From: Escherichia coli
Lineage (GTDB): Bacteria; Pseudomonadota; Gammaproteobacteria; Enterobacterales; Enterobacteriaceae
DNA: 64,000 nucleotides
NCBI RefSeq assembly: GCF_046105845.1
Contig: NZ_CP151004.1
Strand: one strand, 5' to 3'
In this document: one piece after another, positions 26,422-35,790 of the stretch
Layout of the letters: each line of letters begins with the position of its first letter
How positions within the stretch are numbered: the first letter of the stretch is position 1
Position numbers and translations under genes: made by a program
Notes under the pieces: generated by a model
The model's database searches: none
Seen by the model: the letters and a program-made list of their open reading frames with translations, nothing else
What the model was told of the DNA's origin: nothing

Positions 26422-28608
26422 ATGTCCGATCGTATCGATAGAGACGTGATTAACGCGCTAATTGCAGGCCATTTTGCGGATCCTTTTTCCGTACTGGGAA
26501 TGCATAAAACCACCGCGGGACTGGAAGTCCGTGCCCTTTTACCCGACGCTACCGATGTGTGGGTGATTGAACCGAAAACCGGGCGCAAACTCGCAAAACT
26601 GGAGTGTCTCGACTCTCGTGGATTCTTTAGCGGTGTCATTCCGCGACGTAAGAATTTTTTCCGCTATCAACTGGCTGTTGTCTGGCATGGTCAGCAAAAC
26701 CTGATAGATGATCCTTACCGTTTTGGTCCGCTAATCCAGGAAATGGATGCCTGGCTATTATCTGAAGGTACTCACCTGCGCCCGTATGAAACCTTAGGCG
26801 CGCATGCAGATACTATGGATGGCGTCACAGGTACGCGTTTTTCTGTCTGGGCTCCAAACGCCCGTCGGGTCTCGGTGGTTGGGCAATTCAACTACTGGGA
26901 CGGTCGCCGTCATCCGATGCGCCTGCGTAAAGAGAGCGGCATCTGGGAACTGTTTATCCCTGGGGCGCATAACGGTCAGCTCTATAAATATGAGATGATT
27001 GATGCCAATGGCAACTTGCGTCTGAAGTCCGACCCTTATGCCTTCGAAGCGCAAATGCGCCCGGAAACCGCGTCTCTTATTTGCGGGCTGCCGGAAAAGG
27101 TTGTGCAGACTGAAGAGCGCAAAAAAGCGAATCAGTTTGATGCGCCAATCTCTATTTATGAAGTTCACCTGGGCTCCTGGCGTCGCCACACCGACAACAA
27201 TTTCTGGTTAAGCTACCGCGAGCTGGCCGATCAACTGGTGCCTTATGCTAAATGGATGGGCTTTACCCACCTCGAACTGCTGCCCATTAACGAGCATCCG
27301 TTCGATGGCAGTTGGGGTTATCAGCCAACCGGCCTGTATGCACCGACCCGCCGTTTTGGTACCCGCGACGACTTCCGTTATTTCATTGATGCCGCACACG
27401 CAGCTGGTCTGAACGTGATTCTCGACTGGGTGCCAGGCCACTTCCCGACCGATGACTTTGCGCTTGCCGAATTTGATGGCACGAACTTGTATGAACACAG
27501 CGATCCGCGCGAAGGCTATCATCAGGACTGGAATACGCTGATCTACAACTATGGTCGCCGTGAAGTCAGTAACTTCCTTGTCGGTAACGCGCTTTACTGG
27601 ATCGAACGTTTTGGTATTGATGCGCTGCGCGTCGATGCGGTGGCGTCAATGATTTATCGTGACTACAGCCGTAAAGAGGGGGAGTGGATCCCGAACGAAT
27701 TTGGCGGGCGCGAGAATCTTGAAGCGATTGAATTCTTGCGTAATACCAACCGTATTCTTGGTGAGCAGGTTTCCGGTGCGGTGACAATGGCGGAGGAGTC
27801 TACCGATTTCCCTGGCGTTTCTCGTCCGCAGGACATGGGCGGTCTGGGCTTCTGGTACAAGTGGAACCTAGGCTGGATGCATGACACCCTGGACTACATG
27901 AAGCTCGACCCGGTTTATCGTCAGTATCATCACGATAAACTGACCTTCGGGATGCTCTACAACTACACTGAAAACTTCGTTCTGCCGTTGTCGCATGATG
28001 AAGTGGTCCACGGTAAAAAATCGATTCTCGACCGGATGCCGGGCGACGCATGGCAGAAATTCGCTAACCTGCGCGCCTACTACGGCTGGATGTGGGCATT
28101 CCCGGGCAAGAAATTGCTGTTCATGGGGAATGAATTTGCCCAGGGCCGCGAGTGGAACCATGACGCCAGCCTCGACTGGCATCTGTTGGAAGGCGGCGAT
28201 AACTGGCACCACGGTGTCCAGCGTCTGGTGCGCGATCTGAACCTCACCTACCGCCACCATAAAGCAATGCATGAACTGGATTTTGACCCGTACGGCTTTG
28301 AATGGCTGGTGGTGGATGACAAAGAACGCTCGGTGCTGATCTTTGTGCGTCGCGATAAAGAGGGTAACGAAATCATCGTTGCCAGTAACTTTACTCCGGT
28401 GCCGCGTCATGATTATCGCTTCGGCATTAACCAGCCGGGCAAATGGCGTGAAATCCTCAATACCGATTCCATGCACTATCACGGCAGTAATGCCGGCAAT
28501 GGCGGCACGGTACACAGCGATGAGATTGCCAGCCACGGTCGTCAGCATTCATTAAGCCTGACACTACCACCGCTGGCCACTATCTGGCTGGTTCGGGAGG
28601 CAGAATGA
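26422..28608 (+). CDS. glgB: 1,4-alpha-glucan branching enzyme GlgB
   Basis: 728 aa. GH13 catalytic motifs (DAVASM, GFRVDAV-like regions). Confidence 0.95.
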
Positions 28609-30578
28609 CACAACTCGCCATTGGCAAACCCGCTCCCCTCGGCGCGCATTACGACGGTCAGGGCGTCAACTTCACACTTTTCTCCGCTCATGCCGAGCGG
28701 GTAGAGCTGTCTGTCTTTGACGCCAATGGCCAGGAACATCGCTATGACTTGCCAGGGAACAGTGGCGACATTTGGCACGGTTATCTGCCGGATGCGCGCC
28801 CGGGTTTGCGTTATGGTTATCGCGTTCATGGCCCCTGGCAACCCGCCGAGGGGCATCGCTTTAACCCGGCGAAGTTGTTGATTGATCCTTGCGCGCGGCA
28901 AATTGACGGGGAATTTAAAGATAACCCGCTGCTGCACGCCGGTCATAATGAACCTGACTATCGCGACAACGCCGCCATTGCGCCGAAATGCGTAGTGGTG
29001 GTTGATCACTATGACTGGGAGGATGATGCTCCGCCGCGCACGCCGTGGGGCAGTACCATCATTTATGAAGCCCATGTCAAAGGATTAACGTACCTGCACC
29101 CGGAGATCCCGGTCGAGATCCGTGGCACTTATAAAGCCCTGGGGCATCCGGTGATGATCAACTATTTGAAACAGTTGGGCATTACCGCGCTGGAACTGCT
29201 GCCGGTGGCGCAGTTTGCCAGCGAACCACGCCTGCAACGTATGGGTCTAAGTAACTACTGGGGTTATAACCCGGTGGCGATGTTTGCGCTGCATCCGGCG
29301 TATGCCTGCTCCCCAGAAACGGCGCTGGATGAGTTTCGCGATGCAATCAAAGCACTGCATAAAGCGGGTATCGAAGTCATTCTTGATATCGTGCTCAACC
29401 ATAGTGCGGAACTGGACCTCGACGGTCCGTTATTCTCTCTGCGTGGGATCGACAACCGTAGCTATTATTGGATAAGAGAAGACGGCGATTATCACAACTG
29501 GACCGGTTGTGGCAACACGCTCAATTTGAGTCATCCGGCGGTGGTGGATTATGCCAGCGCCTGCCTGCGTTATTGGGTAGAAACCTGCCACGTCGATGGT
29601 TTCCGCTTTGATCTGGCGGCAGTCATGGGCCGTACGCCAGAGTTTCGTCAGGATGCGCCGTTGTTTACCGCTATCCAGAACTGCCCGGTGCTCTCGCAGG
29701 TGAAGTTAATTGCTGAACCGTGGGATATTGCTCCTGGTGGTTATCAGGTGGGAAATTTCCCGCCGCTGTTTGCCGAGTGGAACGATCATTTCCGCGATGC
29801 TGCCCGTCGTTTCTGGCTTCATTATGATTTGCCTCTGGGGGCGTTTGCCGGGCGTTTTGCTGCCTCCAGCGATGTTTTTAAACGTAATGGTCGTCTGCCG
29901 AGTGCCGCGATTAATCTCGTCACCGCGCATGACGGTTTTACGCTTCGCGACTGCGTTTGCTTCAACCATAAACATAATGAAGCAAACGGAGAAGAAAATC
30001 GCGACGGGACCAACAACAATTACAGTAACAATCATGGTAAAGAAGGGTTAGGCGGTACTCTTGACTTGGTTGAACGGCGTCGCGACAGCATTCACGCCCT
30101 GTTAACAACGTTGTTACTCTCCCAGGGTACGCCGATGTTACTGGCCGGTGACGAACATGGTCACAGCCAGCATGGCAATAACAATGCCTACTGTCAGGAT
30201 AACCAATTAACCTGGTTGGACTGGTCGCAGGCAAGCAGTGGTTTAACCGCATTTACCGCCGCGTTAATCCATCTGCGCAAGCGCATTCCCGCTTTGGTGG
30301 AGAATCGCTGGTGGGAAGAAGGCGACGGCAATGTCCGTTGGCTAAATCGATATGCTCAACCTTTAAGCACGGATGAGTGGCAAAACGGGCCGAAACAGCT
30401 GCAAATTCTGCTCTCGGATCGCTTTTTGATCGCAATTAACGCCACGCTTGAGGTAACAGAGATTGTTTTACCTGCTGGGGAGTGGCACGCCATTCCCCCA
30501 TTCGCTGGAGAGGATAACCCAGTGATTACGGCTGTCTGGCAGGGACCTGCACACGGATTGTGTGTGTTCCAGAGATGA
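28605..30578 (+). CDS. glgX: Glycogen debranching enzyme GlgX
   Basis: 657 aa. ATGA overlap with glgB. GH13 motifs GFRFDLA and EPWD. Confidence 0.95.
30550..30564 (+). promoter_or_regulatory. CsrA-binding hairpin in the glgC leader (GGA in loop)
   Basis: cacacGGAttgtgtg hairpin 30 nt upstream of the glgC Shine-Dalgarno AAGGAG. Matches the characterised CsrA site of the glgCAP leader. Confidence 0.75.
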
Positions 30579-30595
30579 TAAAAAAGGAGTTAGTC

Positions 30596-31891
30596 ATGGT
30601 TAGTTTAGAGAAGAACGATCACTTAATGTTGGCGCGCCAGCTGCCATTGAAATCTGTTGCCCTGATACTGGCGGGAGGACGTGGTACCCGCCTGAAGGAT
30701 TTAACCAATAAGCGAGCAAAACCGGCCGTACACTTCGGCGGTAAGTTCCGCATTATCGACTTTGCGCTGTCTAACTGCATCAACTCCGGTATCCGTCGTA
30801 TGGGCGTGATCACCCAGTACCAGTCCCACACTCTGGTGCAGCACATTCAGCGCGGCTGGTCATTCTTCAATGAAGAAATGAACGAGTTTGTCGATCTGCT
30901 GCCAGCACAGCAGAGAATGAAAGGGGAAAACTGGTATCGCGGCACCGCAGATGCAGTTACCCAAAACCTCGACATTATCCGCCGTTATAAAGCGGAATAC
31001 GTGGTGATCCTGGCGGGCGACCATATCTACAAGCAAGACTACTCGCGTATGCTTATCGACCACGTCGAAAAAGGCGCACGTTGCACCGTTGCTTGTATGC
31101 CAGTACCGATTGAAGAAGCCTCCGCATTTGGCGTTATGGCGGTTGATGAGAACGATAAAATTATCGAATTCGTTGAAAAACCTGCTAACCCACCGTCAAT
31201 GCCGAACGATCCGAGCAAATCTCTGGCGAGTATGGGTATCTACGTCTTTGACGCCGACTATCTGTATGAACTGCTGGAAGAAGACGATCGCGATGAGAAC
31301 TCCAGCCACGACTTTGGCAAAGATTTGATTCCCAAGATCACCGAAGCCGGTCTGGCCTATGCGCACCCGTTCCCGCTCTCTTGCGTACAATCCGACCCGG
31401 ATGCCGAGCCGTACTGGCGCGATGTGGGTACGCTGGAAGCTTACTGGAAAGCGAACCTCGATCTGGCCTCTGTGGTGCCGGAACTGGATATGTACGATCG
31501 CAATTGGCCAATTCGCACCTACAATGAATCATTACCGCCAGCGAAATTCGTGCAGGATCGCTCCGGTAGCCACGGGATGACCCTTAACTCACTGGTATCC
31601 GGCGGTTGTGTGATCTCCGGTTCGGTGGTGGTGCAGTCCGTTCTGTTCTCGCGCGTTCGCGTGAATTCATTCTGCAACATTGATTCCGCCGTATTGTTAC
31701 CGGAAGTATGGGTAGGTCGCTCGTGCCGTCTGCGCCGCTGCGTCATCGATCGTGCTTGTGTTATTCCGGAAGGCATGGTGATTGGTGAAAACGCAGAGGA
31801 AGATGCACGTCGTTTCTATCGTTCAGAAGAAGGCATCGTGCTGGTAACGCGCGAAATGCTACGGAAGTTAGGGCATAAACAGGAGCGATAA
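30596..31891 (+). CDS. glgC: Glucose-1-phosphate adenylyltransferase GlgC
   Basis: 431 aa from ATG 30596 ([17 protein letters not shown]). Nucleotidyl-transferase motif GGRGTRL. Confidence 0.95.
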
Positions 31892-33324
31892 TGCAGGTTT
31901 TACATGTATGTTCAGAGATGTTCCCGCTGCTTAAAACCGGCGGTCTGGCTGATGTTATTGGGGCATTACCCGCAGCACAAATCGCAGATGGCGTTGACGC
32001 TCGCGTACTGTTGCCTGCATTTCCCGATATTCGCCGTGGCGTGACCGATGCGCAGGTAGTATCCCGTCGTGATACCTTCGCCGGACATATCACGCTGTTG
32101 TTCGGTCATTACAACGGGGTTGGCATTTACCTGATTGACGCGCCGCATCTCTATGATCGTCCGGGAAGCCCGTATCACGATACCAACTTATTTGCCTATA
32201 CCGACAACGTATTGCGTTTTGCGCTGCTGGGGTGGGTTGGGGCAGAAATGGCTAGCGGGCTTGACCCATTCTGGCGTCCTGATGTGGTGCATGCGCACGA
32301 CTGGCATGCAGGCCTTGCGCCTGCGTATCTGGCGGCGCGCGGGCGTCCGGCGAAGTCGGTGTTTACTGTGCACAACCTGGCCTATCAAGGCATGTTTTAT
32401 GCACATCACATGAATGACATCCAATTGCCATGGTCATTCTTTAATATTCATGGGCTGGAATTCAACGGACAAATCTCTTTTCTGAAGGCCGGTCTGTACT
32501 ATGCCGATCACATTACGGCAGTCAGTCCAACCTACGCTCGCGAGATCACCGAACCGCAGTTTGCCTACGGTATGGAAGGTCTGTTGCAACAGCGTCACCG
32601 TGAAGGGCGTCTTTCCGGCGTACTGAACGGCGTGGACGAGAAAATCTGGAGTCCAGAGACGGACTTACTGTTGGCCTCGCGTTACACCCGCGATACGTTG
32701 GAAGATAAAGCGGAAAATAAGCGCCAGTTACAAATCGCAATGGGGCTTAAGGTTGACGATAAAGTGCCGCTTTTTGCAGTGGTGAGCCGTCTGACCAGCC
32801 AGAAAGGTCTCGACCTGGTGCTGGAGGCCTTACCGGGTCTTCTGGAGCAGGGCGGGCAACTGGCGCTACTCGGCGCGGGCGATCCGGTGCTGCAGGAAGG
32901 TTTCCTTGCGGCGGCAGCGGAATACCCCGGCCAGGTGGGCGTTCAGATTGGCTATCACGAAGCATTTTCGCATCGCATTATGGGCGGCGCGGACGTCATT
33001 CTGGTGCCCAGCCGTTTTGAACCGTGCGGCTTAACGCAACTTTATGGATTGAAGTACGGTACGCTGCCGTTAGTGCGGCGCACCGGTGGGCTTGCTGATA
33101 CGGTTTCTGACTGTTCTCTTGAGAACCTTGCAGATGGCGTCGCCAGTGGGTTTGTCTTTGAAGATAGTAATGCCTGGTCGCTGTTACGGGCTATTCGACG
33201 TGCTTTTGTACTGTGGTCCCGTCCTTCACTGTGGCGGTTTGTGCAACGTCAGGCTATGGCAATGGATTTTAGCTGGCAGGTCGCGGCGAAGTCGTACCGT
33301 GAGCTTTACTATCGCTTGAAATAG
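31891..33324 (+). CDS. glgA: Glycogen synthase GlgA
   Basis: 477 aa. N-terminal KTGGL motif (LKTGGLADV). TAATG overlap with glgC. Confidence 0.95.

Positions 33325-35790
<2,466 letters not shown>

Follow-up and report, generated by a model that had tools for sequence, protein, structure and literature searches.

The synonymous sites at the 3' end of glgX evolve at an unusually low rate. Across the Enterobacteriaceae compared, the last 24 glgX codons have a synonymous observed/expected ratio of 0.37, which is the lowest of all windows (rank 1/2,128; Mann-Whitney p = 6e-10); outside this zone, no non-overlapping block falls below 0.52. The constrained zone extends over about 72 nt and includes, in addition to the published CsrA hairpin (HP2), a second conserved hairpin (HP1) and the linker between the two, being thus larger than described in the first-pass annotation of this DNA, which had proposed the synonymous comparison as a check and had expected the excess conservation that was found. 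Here it is proposed, as the likely explanation, that the glgX tail doubles as the code for the GlgX C terminus and as a glgC leader with CsrA hairpins, and that selection on the GGA motifs and on the stems fixes the synonymous positions. As a regulatory element, the CsrA site was well known before, and the overlap of its hairpin with glgX follows from annotation.

Comparison set and synonymous rates

A genome scan gave the closest 80 loci, and the comparison set comprised 69 Enterobacteriaceae species. Synonymous rates were obtained as per-codon Fitch counts and averaged as observed/expected ratios in 24-codon windows, 2,128 of them across glgB, glgX, glgC and glgA, using only columns with a conserved amino acid and normalising per amino acid.

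Gene layout of the glgX-glgC junction

The window, meaning the whole 64,000-nt stretch of DNA that was analysed, corresponds to the E. coli glgBXCAP operon (Table 1). The 451 nt around the hairpin site are found with at least 99% identity in 5,425 of the 5,426 complete E. coli genomes, and the RefSeq annotation at this match gives glgX followed by glgC. As much as 117 of the 134 nt of the glgC(AP) leader consist of glgX codons 620-657 and the stop codon. The protein encoded there is part of a folded domain, with the Pfam domain GlgX_C spanning residues 571-655 and the coverage of PDB 2WSK extending to residue 657.

Table 1. Features of the glgX-glgC junction, in window positions.
Feature	Positions	Strand	Description	Basis
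glgX CDS	28605..30578	+	657 codons and stop TGA (30576-30578)	ORF list, translation, RefSeq
glgC(AP) mRNA leader	30462..30595	+	+1 to +134	+1 as published
HP0	30477..30498	+	GGGGAGUGG-CACG-CCAUUCCCC; loop without GGA	Leader MFE and centroid folds
HP1	30502..30525	+	UCGCUGG-AGAGGAUAAC-CCAGUGA; candidate upstream CsrA site	Folding, RNAalifold, covariation
Zone of excess synonymous-site conservation	30504..30575	+	~72 nt, glgX codons 634-657	
HP2	30549..30565	+	GCACAC-GGAUU-GUGUGU; published high-affinity CsrA hairpin	Folding, conservation, literature
HP2 loop GGA	30555..30557	+	In-frame Gly651 codon	GGA in 64/69 species
(TG)4 run	30559..30566	+	3' arm of HP2; slipping by 2 nt gives an in-frame glgX-glgC fusion	
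glgX-glgC spacer	30579..30595	+	17 nt	
glgC Shine-Dalgarno (SD)	30584..30589	+	AAGGAG; second CsrA site	Sequence; literature
glgC CDS	30596..31891	+	ATG 30596-30598; translation starts MVSLEKND	RefSeq annotation

Both the hairpin and the SD had initially been assigned to the final 30 codons of glgX. This is correct for the hairpin, since cacacGGAttgtgtg (30550-30564) lies inside codons 649-654 (A649 to V654) of 657, within the last 10 codons; the SD, however, begins 6 nt past the glgX stop and is intergenic. Its GGA (30586-30588) follows that of HP2 at a distance of 31 nt, and an SD with GGA is present in 69/69 species. The sole case among the 69 species with the SD within glgX is Kosakonia cowanii (L076), through loss of the stop codon. 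The glgA-glgP spacer has a similar length (18 nt) to that between glgX and glgC, and the stop codons of glgB and glgC overlap the start of the next gene. No intrinsic terminators or sigma-70 promoters were found in a scan of 30250-30650, and an Rfam scan of 30000-31000 with permissive E-values returned chance-level matches only.

Distribution of the constraint along the operon

If the constraint were generic to operon junctions, it would reflect what any downstream translation start needs (an SD, an unstructured or A-rich standby site, termination-reinitiation coupling) and nothing specific to CsrA. The 3' end of glgA is in fact depressed as well (0.55, rank 15/2,128), as are the 5' ends of glgB, glgC and glgA (0.60-0.72), and the spacer and final glgX codons are invariant and A/G-rich. 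However, the 3' ends of glgB and glgC, with their stop-start overlaps, are undepressed (1.02 and 0.92), and the 72-nt glgX valley, the most extreme of all, exceeds a ribosome footprint by far. It also favours structure, with two conserved hairpins carrying compensatory changes, and a rare GGA codon is fixed exactly in a loop. The junction reading is considered improbable.

Within the valley, Glu636 is GAG in 90% (rank 2/89), and few residues of their kind vary as little as Ala634, Pro639, Ala649 and Cys653. The linker between HP1 and HP2 (GCT GTC TGG) is as frozen as the CsrA motifs, and so are the last codons (AGA/AGG); the linker codons GCT and GTC are the most biased of their kind.

A selection at the level of protein or translation, in which the C-terminal strand of GlgX would need rare codons (GGA, AGA/AGG) that pace the ribosome for folding or coupling and the hairpins would be incidental, agrees with the position of residues 571-655 in a conserved domain, with the well conserved amino acids of the tail and with the retention of those rare codons. 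Nevertheless, the tail is still extreme after restriction to conserved-amino-acid columns and normalisation per amino acid; codon pacing predicts neither compensatory base-pair changes nor the retention of a stem under amino-acid change, and leaves unexplained that the fixed bases spell GGA in loops. This reading is considered very improbable.

Two further candidates were discarded. Pairing of the SdsR sRNA, considered as the cause of a synonymous valley in mid-glgX, has a duplex energy there equal to the background mean. A search of the glgA tail ahead of glgP for a conserved hairpin with GGA gave a candidate stem that is broken by variable third positions.

HP2, the published CsrA hairpin

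The in-frame Gly651 codon in the HP2 loop shows 3 synonymous steps versus a median of 19, and among the 165 conserved Gly columns it ranks first on two counts, the smallest number of changes and the highest usage of GGA, a codon that makes up 9.7% at conserved Gly sites. HP2 folds with -7.9 kcal/mol (z = -2.1) and is 94% paired over 53 distinct sequences, with an A-U/G-U/G-C exchange at pair 51-63. An outer extension of this hairpin (GGGAC/GUUCC), present in the E. coli MFE structure, was rejected, as pairs 10-30 and 6-34 are broken in most species. The motif is not unusual by sequence alone, with 25 5-bp hairpins having a GGA loop on the + strand of the window versus 21.2 +/- 4.1 in shuffles; HP2 instead owes its significance to its location ahead of the glgC SD and ATG, to its conservation and to the published experiments.

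The 42 nt that span HP2 and the SD have matches of at least 99% (effectively identical) in 5,410 of the 5,426 complete E. coli genomes. In Silvania both loop GGAs are gone and the HP2 stem is degraded too.

Putative GlgX-GlgC fusion products of 1094 aa turned up in a protein search, and one locus (L083) shows the slip of the TG run by DNA alignment. The TG deletion is reported for strains such as that of GCA_047262425.1, whereas the complete RefSeq E. coli genomes gave no match to this fusion allele, although the positive control was matched there.

HP1 and HP0 in the leader

HP1 reads gCCGGA-GAGGAUAA-UCCGGu in most species and, in the window, contains GGAs at 30507-30509 (Gly635) and 30512-30514 (Glu636/Asp637). 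It folds with -8.5 kcal/mol (z = -2.5), is 93.7% paired with double changes in 3/6 pairs, and has a loop GGA in 60/69 species. RNAalifold recovers both HP1 and HP2, which jointly have 93.9% of cells paired (17-55% in slid controls) and 5 pairs with double changes; their covariation score exceeds 500/500 shuffles, although it derives from few independent events, and the A-U to G-C exchanges are both third-position AT-to-GC changes that could partly be lineage GC3 shifts. In 58/69 species, both loops (HP1 and HP2) and the SD all carry a GGA. A role of HP1 as a promoter was rejected, its loop containing GATAAT without a usable -35.

Other RNA functions may share or dominate the constraint, with HP0, HP1, HP2 and the linker forming a processing or stability module of which CsrA would use only a part. 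Possible roles include protection of the glgCAP 5' end, a site at which RNase E or RNase III splits glgBX from glgCAP, or a fold masking the glgC start. Several observations point in this direction. HP0 lacks a loop GGA, yet it has 93.4% of cells paired over 47 distinct sequences (52-65% when slid), with changes that are one-sided and wobble-compatible only. Two Kluyvera species (L066 and L074) keep perfect 6-7 bp HP1 stems, through compensatory and even nonsynonymous changes, despite altered amino acids and loss of the GGA. The biased GCT and GTC codons of the linker fit the same idea, and so does the lack of relaxation in a 13-species clade with an insert of 55-81 nt before the SD. There, the distance from HP2 to the SD is roughly 70-95 nt, the insert folds into a single stem-loop and the constraint on the glgX tail is even stronger (observed/expected 0.10). 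RNAalifold also has the SD pairing with UUCC, and codons 2-3 at the start of glgC pairing with CUGGC (30536-30540); however, these long-range pairs have zero covariation and were rejected. Also against such a module, an Rfam match is absent, the leader folded as a whole does not exceed shuffles in stability (z = -0.6) and the most extreme single sites are already explained by CsrA. We know of no experiment that gives the glgX-tail hairpins a processing or stability role, and this too was counted against it. The module is considered possible, though unlikely.

Proposed dual function of the glgX tail

In the preferred explanation, that of a coding tail doubling as a CsrA leader, the last ~72 nt of glgX code for the final part of the folded C-terminal domain of GlgX and are also the promoter-distal part of the glgC(AP) mRNA leader. 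The RNA is predicted to form two short hairpins, HP1 and HP2, with loops presenting GGA. By the mechanism shown in the literature, a CsrA dimer tethered at HP2, the experimentally defined high-affinity site, reaches the SD GGA, which blocks 30S binding and destabilises the mRNA. Because the bases of the hairpins double as glgX codons, and the GGAs and stems are under selection, synonymous positions that are otherwise free would become fixed, as in Gly651 (the rare codon GGA), Glu636 (GAG) and the covarying third positions of the Ala/Cys and Ala/Pro codons. On these grounds we infer that the constraint on the glgX tail is attributable to CsrA, and HP1 may correspond to one of the two additional CsrA sites that the leader is reported to have.

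Ribosomes ending glgX on the full-length glgBXCAP mRNA would have to unfold HP1 and HP2 and would stop 17 nt before the glgC ATG, so CsrA repression should act mainly on transcripts starting inside glgX.

The first-pass annotation held that post-transcriptional control of glgCAP constrains the 3' end of glgX. The constraint is real; CsrA control, however, probably does not account for all of it and is probably not its sole cause, because some of the constraint tracks neither the GGA motifs nor the distance to the SD. The HP1 stem of Kluyvera outlives its GGA, and the clade carrying an 80-nt insert before the SD retains the constraint. Some of the effect may also be generic to operon junctions, given the depressed 3' end of glgA next to its 18-nt spacer.

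A broader and tentative proposal, which we hold to be doubtful in its entirety, is a module of three hairpins (HP0, HP1 and HP2) beyond the model of one hairpin plus the SD. HP1 and HP0 could be independent of CsrA, serving transcript-end protection or the processing of glgBXCAP to glgCAP. CsrA control could be isoform-specific, that is, strong on transcripts from inside glgX and bypassed by translational coupling on the full-length mRNA, and the insert of Klebsiella, Raoultella and Kluyvera could keep HP2 and the SD close in space.

Significance

The glgX tail offers a quantified case of a single DNA stretch being both protein code and the binding platform of a global RNA regulator, whose motif imposes the rare codon GGA and has kept silent sites from changing for tens of millions of years. 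In practical terms, 'silent' recoding of glgX, its C-terminal tagging or its deletion will disturb glgC regulation. The label 'untranslated' for the glgC leader is true only of transcripts starting inside glgX. As the accepted mechanism is unchanged, the significance is modest.

Comparison with known systems

The CsrA sites of the glgC leader are reportedly textbook knowledge through the work of Baker in 2002. The element in the window is the same as that of the E. coli glgCAP leader (Baker et al. 2002; Mercante et al. 2009; reviewed in PMC7652899), with which it shares a hairpin with GGA in its loop some 30 nt ahead of an SD that also contains GGA; its sequence matches E. coli genomes at 100% identity. 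In agreement with the earlier description of the hairpin and SD as known CsrA targets, CsrA binds both, with four sites in the leader (PMC7652899, PMC2896534, PMC6028588), and in vivo CLIP-seq in Salmonella locates CsrA crosslinks on the GGA hairpin (PMC5207318). Direct CsrA binding and the CsrA-dependent repression of glgC are taken here from the literature (PMC7652899, PMC6028588, PMC2896534, PMC5207318). The wild-type ACGGA site was mutated in one of these studies (PMC6028588), and the leader RNA used in vitro in another runs from +46 to +179 (PMC2896534), so that HP1 is cut in half. One CsrA dimer bridges sites 10-63 nt apart (PMC7652899); the 31 nt between GGA centres in the window fall within this range, which the linear distance from HP2 to the SD mostly exceeds in the long-spacer clade. 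The dual-site arrangement of glgC-type leaders is also present, with one GGA exposed by the loop of a short hairpin that precedes the SD and a second overlapping the SD. In the open-access literature searched, this leader is called an 'untranslated leader' or '5'UTR' and glgX is never named, whereas in the genome most of it is glgX codons.

The ColE7 cea-cei-cel operon is alike in that a GGA stem-loop upstream and the SD of a downstream gene, the lysis gene cel, lie on a polycistronic mRNA on which CsrA blocks translation (PMC2896534). Unlike glgX, coding overlap or synonymous constraint is not described for cel in that study (PMC2896534).

A wider class of comparison is formed by the synonymous constraint elements. 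The glgX tail resembles them in that a local drop of the synonymous rate below the gene background coincides with a conserved RNA structure, with compensatory changes, and with a protein-binding motif. Synonymous constraint elements are regulatory RNA embedded in coding sequence. The glgX tail differs in that its function was known from experiments first, the constraint being a consequence and not the route of discovery.

Position of the CsrA sites at the glgX-glgC junction

The published high-affinity hairpin of CsrA, the RNA regulator that represses glgC, is located in the coding 3' end of glgX (HP2, 30549-30565), and the glgC Shine-Dalgarno sequence (SD) is in the spacer that follows. In the glgX frame the hairpin reads Ala649 to Val654 and is therefore within the last ten codons, its loop GGA being the in-frame Gly651 codon. 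The first-pass annotation had the hairpin inside glgX, which is borne out, and had placed the SD within the last 30 glgX codons, which is wrong, as it lies past the stop codon and is intergenic. A stretch of 451 nt around the site was found with at least 99% identity in 5,425 of the 5,426 complete E. coli genomes, annotated as glgX and then glgC, with a gap of 17 nt in the RefSeq annotation. The Pfam domain GlgX_C spans GlgX residues 571-655, and the structure PDB 2WSK extends to residue 657; glgX codons of this folded domain provide the bases for HP2, for a second GGA-loop hairpin (HP1) and for the GGA motifs of both.

Features of the glg junction, silent-site constraint of the four gene ends (observed/expected synonymous changes, last 24 codons) and loci with an insert
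Feature	Position	Description
glgX	28605-30578	657 codons; stop TGA 30576-30578
HP0	30477-30498	9-bp hairpin GGGGAGUGG-CACG-CCAUUCCCC; starts 15 nt past the inferred glgC TSS
HP1	30502-30525	5' of the known hairpin; GGA in loop; -8.5 kcal/mol, z = -2.5
glgX synonymous valley	30504-30575	codons 634-657
Hairpin cacacGGAttgtgtg	30550-30564	glgX frame GCA CAC GGA TTG TGT GTG
(TG)4 run	30559-30566	3' arm of the CsrA hairpin
glgX-glgC spacer	30579-30595	17 nt
SD AAGGAG	30584-30589	in spacer, 3' of glgX stop
glgC	ATG at 30596	protein begins MVSLEKND
glgX last 24 codons		0.37; rank 1 of 2,128 windows
glgB last 24 codons		1.02; rank 1,026 of 2,128
glgC last 24 codons		0.92; rank 404 of 2,128
glgA last 24 codons		0.55; rank 15 of 2,128
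Insert-bearing loci		L017, L021, L028, L035, L037, L039, L041, L044, L045, L057, L062, L066, L074

Four CsrA sites in total, including the high-affinity hairpin loop and the SD, have been reported for the glgC leader (PMC7652899; PMC2896534), in agreement with the first-pass annotation, which had named these two as known targets. One CsrA dimer bridges the hairpin loop and the SD, and such bridging works over distances of 10-63 nt (PMC7652899; PMC2896534). The wild-type hairpin site ACGGA has been mutated in reporter assays (PMC6028588), and in vivo CLIP-seq of Salmonella gave reads that "almost perfectly overlapped" the GGA hairpin (PMC5207318). Two transcription units have been described: the glgB promoter drives glgBXCAP, and a promoter 5' of glgC drives glgCAP (PMC10819704). 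The primer coordinates of one paper set +46 at 30507 and +179 at 30640 (PMC2896534), from which a transcription start site (TSS) at 30462 and a glgC ATG at +135 are derived; thus, 117 of the 134 leader nucleotides would be glgX codons 620-657 plus the stop. The searchable open-access papers (PMC5207318 among them) call this region an untranslated leader or 5'UTR, and in none of them was its glgX-coding nature found to be mentioned; the overlap follows from the genome annotation.

Two variations of reading frame were observed at the junction. The glgX stop shares bases with an ATG in the glgC frame (ATGA, 30575-30578), which lies 7 codons 5' of the annotated glgC start, and this frame is open upstream back to a GTG at 30560; the ATG is not kept in species with glgX ending in TAA. 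Also, a few E. coli assemblies (locus L083, 2216-2304) have a 2-nt TG deletion in the (TG)4 run, which leaves the hairpin intact and shifts glgX into the glgC frame, giving 1094-aa GlgX-GlgC fusion products, while a 1092-aa variant putatively comes from another small junction deletion. The TG-deletion allele is present in none of the 5,426 complete RefSeq E. coli genomes, and a sequencing error is therefore possible.

Synonymous constraint at the glgX 3' end

A scan of species-representative genomes gave, among the matches listed, 80 Enterobacteriaceae loci whose GlgX shares 73-98% identity with the query, and the 69 species with complete glgB, glgX, glgC and glgA were used for codon alignments and a neighbour-joining tree. 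For each codon column, the number of synonymous changes was taken as codon Fitch steps minus amino-acid Fitch steps and divided by the average for that amino acid; these numbers are parsimony minima on a simple neighbour-joining tree, for species sampling confined to Enterobacteriaceae. The background amounts to about 13 synonymous changes per codon. The glgX tail has the lowest ratio of all windows, and among blocks that do not overlap it the lowest reaches 0.52. An excess of silent-site conservation is thus present, as shown per column (Mann-Whitney p = 6e-10), and fourfold sites go in the same direction (pairwise diversity 0.38 vs 0.55, p = 0.009).

The bases of HP1, HP2 and their GGA motifs are under strong nucleotide-level selection. 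Over the 165 conserved Gly columns of the four genes, GGA accounts for 9.7% of codon usage. At Gly651, 64 of 69 species use GGA, and only 3 changes are counted on the tree against a median of 19; this column ranks first on both counts. The codon of Glu636, from which the upstream GGA takes its first G, is GAG in 90% of species (rank 2 of 89), and the stem-pairing third positions Ala634/Pro639 and Ala649/Cys653 show some of the lowest variability for their kinds.

A second strong valley is found in mid-glgX (29439-29471, codons ~279-289, CTG CGT GGG ATC GAC AAC CGT AGC TAT TAT TGG), having the lowest 10-codon observed/expected ratio of the four genes (0.15); its Gly is encoded by GGA in 55 of 69 species and by GGG in E. 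coli. The small RNA SdsR represses GlgX in Salmonella at an unmapped site (PMC5137417), and pairing here was rejected as an explanation, the SdsR-glgX duplex energy at this valley being only average. The first 10 codons of glgB (26422-26451) are also constrained (0.27, rank 3 of 2,090), more strongly than the glgC or glgA starts.

Conserved hairpins in the glgC leader

By sequence alone, the GGA-loop hairpin motif is statistically unremarkable: 25 perfect 5-bp hairpins with a GGA-containing loop of 4-8 nt occur on the plus strand of the window, compared with 21.2 +/- 4.1 in shuffles, and HP2 folds at -7.9 kcal/mol (z = -2.1). The only other such hairpin in the window with an SD-like sequence and a start codon at most 50 nt on is at 63040-63055 (cgcgcCAGGATgcgcg, then GGAGG, then GTG).

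Across 53 distinct sequences, 93.9% of the HP1 and HP2 cells are paired, five pairs have both sides changed, and the covariation score was reached by 0 of 500 shuffles, with slid controls pairing at just 17-55%. The E. coli sequence of HP1 is UCGCUGG-AGAGGAUAAC-CCAGUGA, and most species have gCCGGA-GAGGAUAA-UCCGGu. The paired changes include U-A to C-G in HP1 (GCT to GCC with CCA to CCG) and A-U to G-C in HP2 (GCA to GCG with TGT to TGC); these double changes represent few independent events, several being AT-to-GC at third positions that may follow lineage GC3 shifts. Two Kluyvera species have replaced the HP1 amino acids FAGEDNPV by FTDAGTSV and FTGDEAPV and retain perfect 6-7 bp stems. GGA is jointly present at the HP1 loop, HP2 loop and SD in 58 of 69 species, and Silvania has lost both loop GGAs and has a degraded HP2 stem. 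HP1, whose GGA is 43 nt from that of HP2, is a candidate for one of the additional CsrA sites. A third hairpin without loop GGA, HP0, is 93% paired across 47 distinct sequences, where all changes are one-sided and wobble-compatible, and may be a 5' stabilising stem.

Constraint beyond the CsrA motifs

No Ala or Val codons in the data set are more biased than those of the linker between HP1 and HP2 (GCT in 93% and GTC in 80% of species, each rank 1 for its amino acid), and about 90% of the species that have the last Arg of glgX encode it with the rare AGA or AGG. HP1 is kept without GGA in Kluyvera. Furthermore, 13 nearly monophyletic species (Klebsiella, Raoultella, Kluyvera, Pseudocitrobacter, Trabulsiella) have an insert of 55-81 nt that separates the glgX stop from the SD, setting HP2 and SD roughly 70-95 nt apart, and their glgX tail is even more constrained (0.10, rank 2 of 2,194). 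Each insert folds into a single long, imperfect stem-loop (-9 to -35 kcal/mol) without a U-tract, beginning 3-4 nt past the glgX stop and ending about 10 nt 5' of the SD, often with extra GGA motifs such as GGCUGGGAUGU in Raoultella; so folded, the insert would hold HP2 and SD close together. The proposal that post-transcriptional control of glgCAP constrains the glgX 3' end survives its own test; however, there is evidence that part of this constraint depends neither on GGA motifs nor on SD distance. Some generic junction effect is likely, because the glgA tail, the second most constrained gene end, is also depressed. In that tail, the block ATG GAT TTT AGC TGG (33261-33275) has nearly invariant silent sites and contains GGA, about 70 nt 5' of the glgP ATG (glgP SD CAGGAA, 33328-33334); a conserved hairpin was sought in the glgA tail and none was found.

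Proposed mechanism and relation to the known glgC element

As shown in the literature, a CsrA dimer bound to the loop of HP2 forms a bridge to the GGA of the SD and excludes the 30S subunit, and mRNA decay is faster. On the full-length glgBXCAP mRNA, ribosomes translating glgX would have to melt HP1 and HP2 and displace CsrA, and their termination 17 nt 5' of the glgC ATG would favour coupled initiation; CsrA would therefore act mainly on transcripts starting at 30462 inside glgX. As a practical lesson, edits at the glgX 3' end are not neutral for glgC. The element is the already known, classical glgC CsrA element itself and not a relative of it; to this, the present analysis adds the corrected position of the SD, a measure of the synonymous constraint, a second hairpin that is conserved, and evidence for a part of the constraint that depends on neither GGA motifs nor SD distance.
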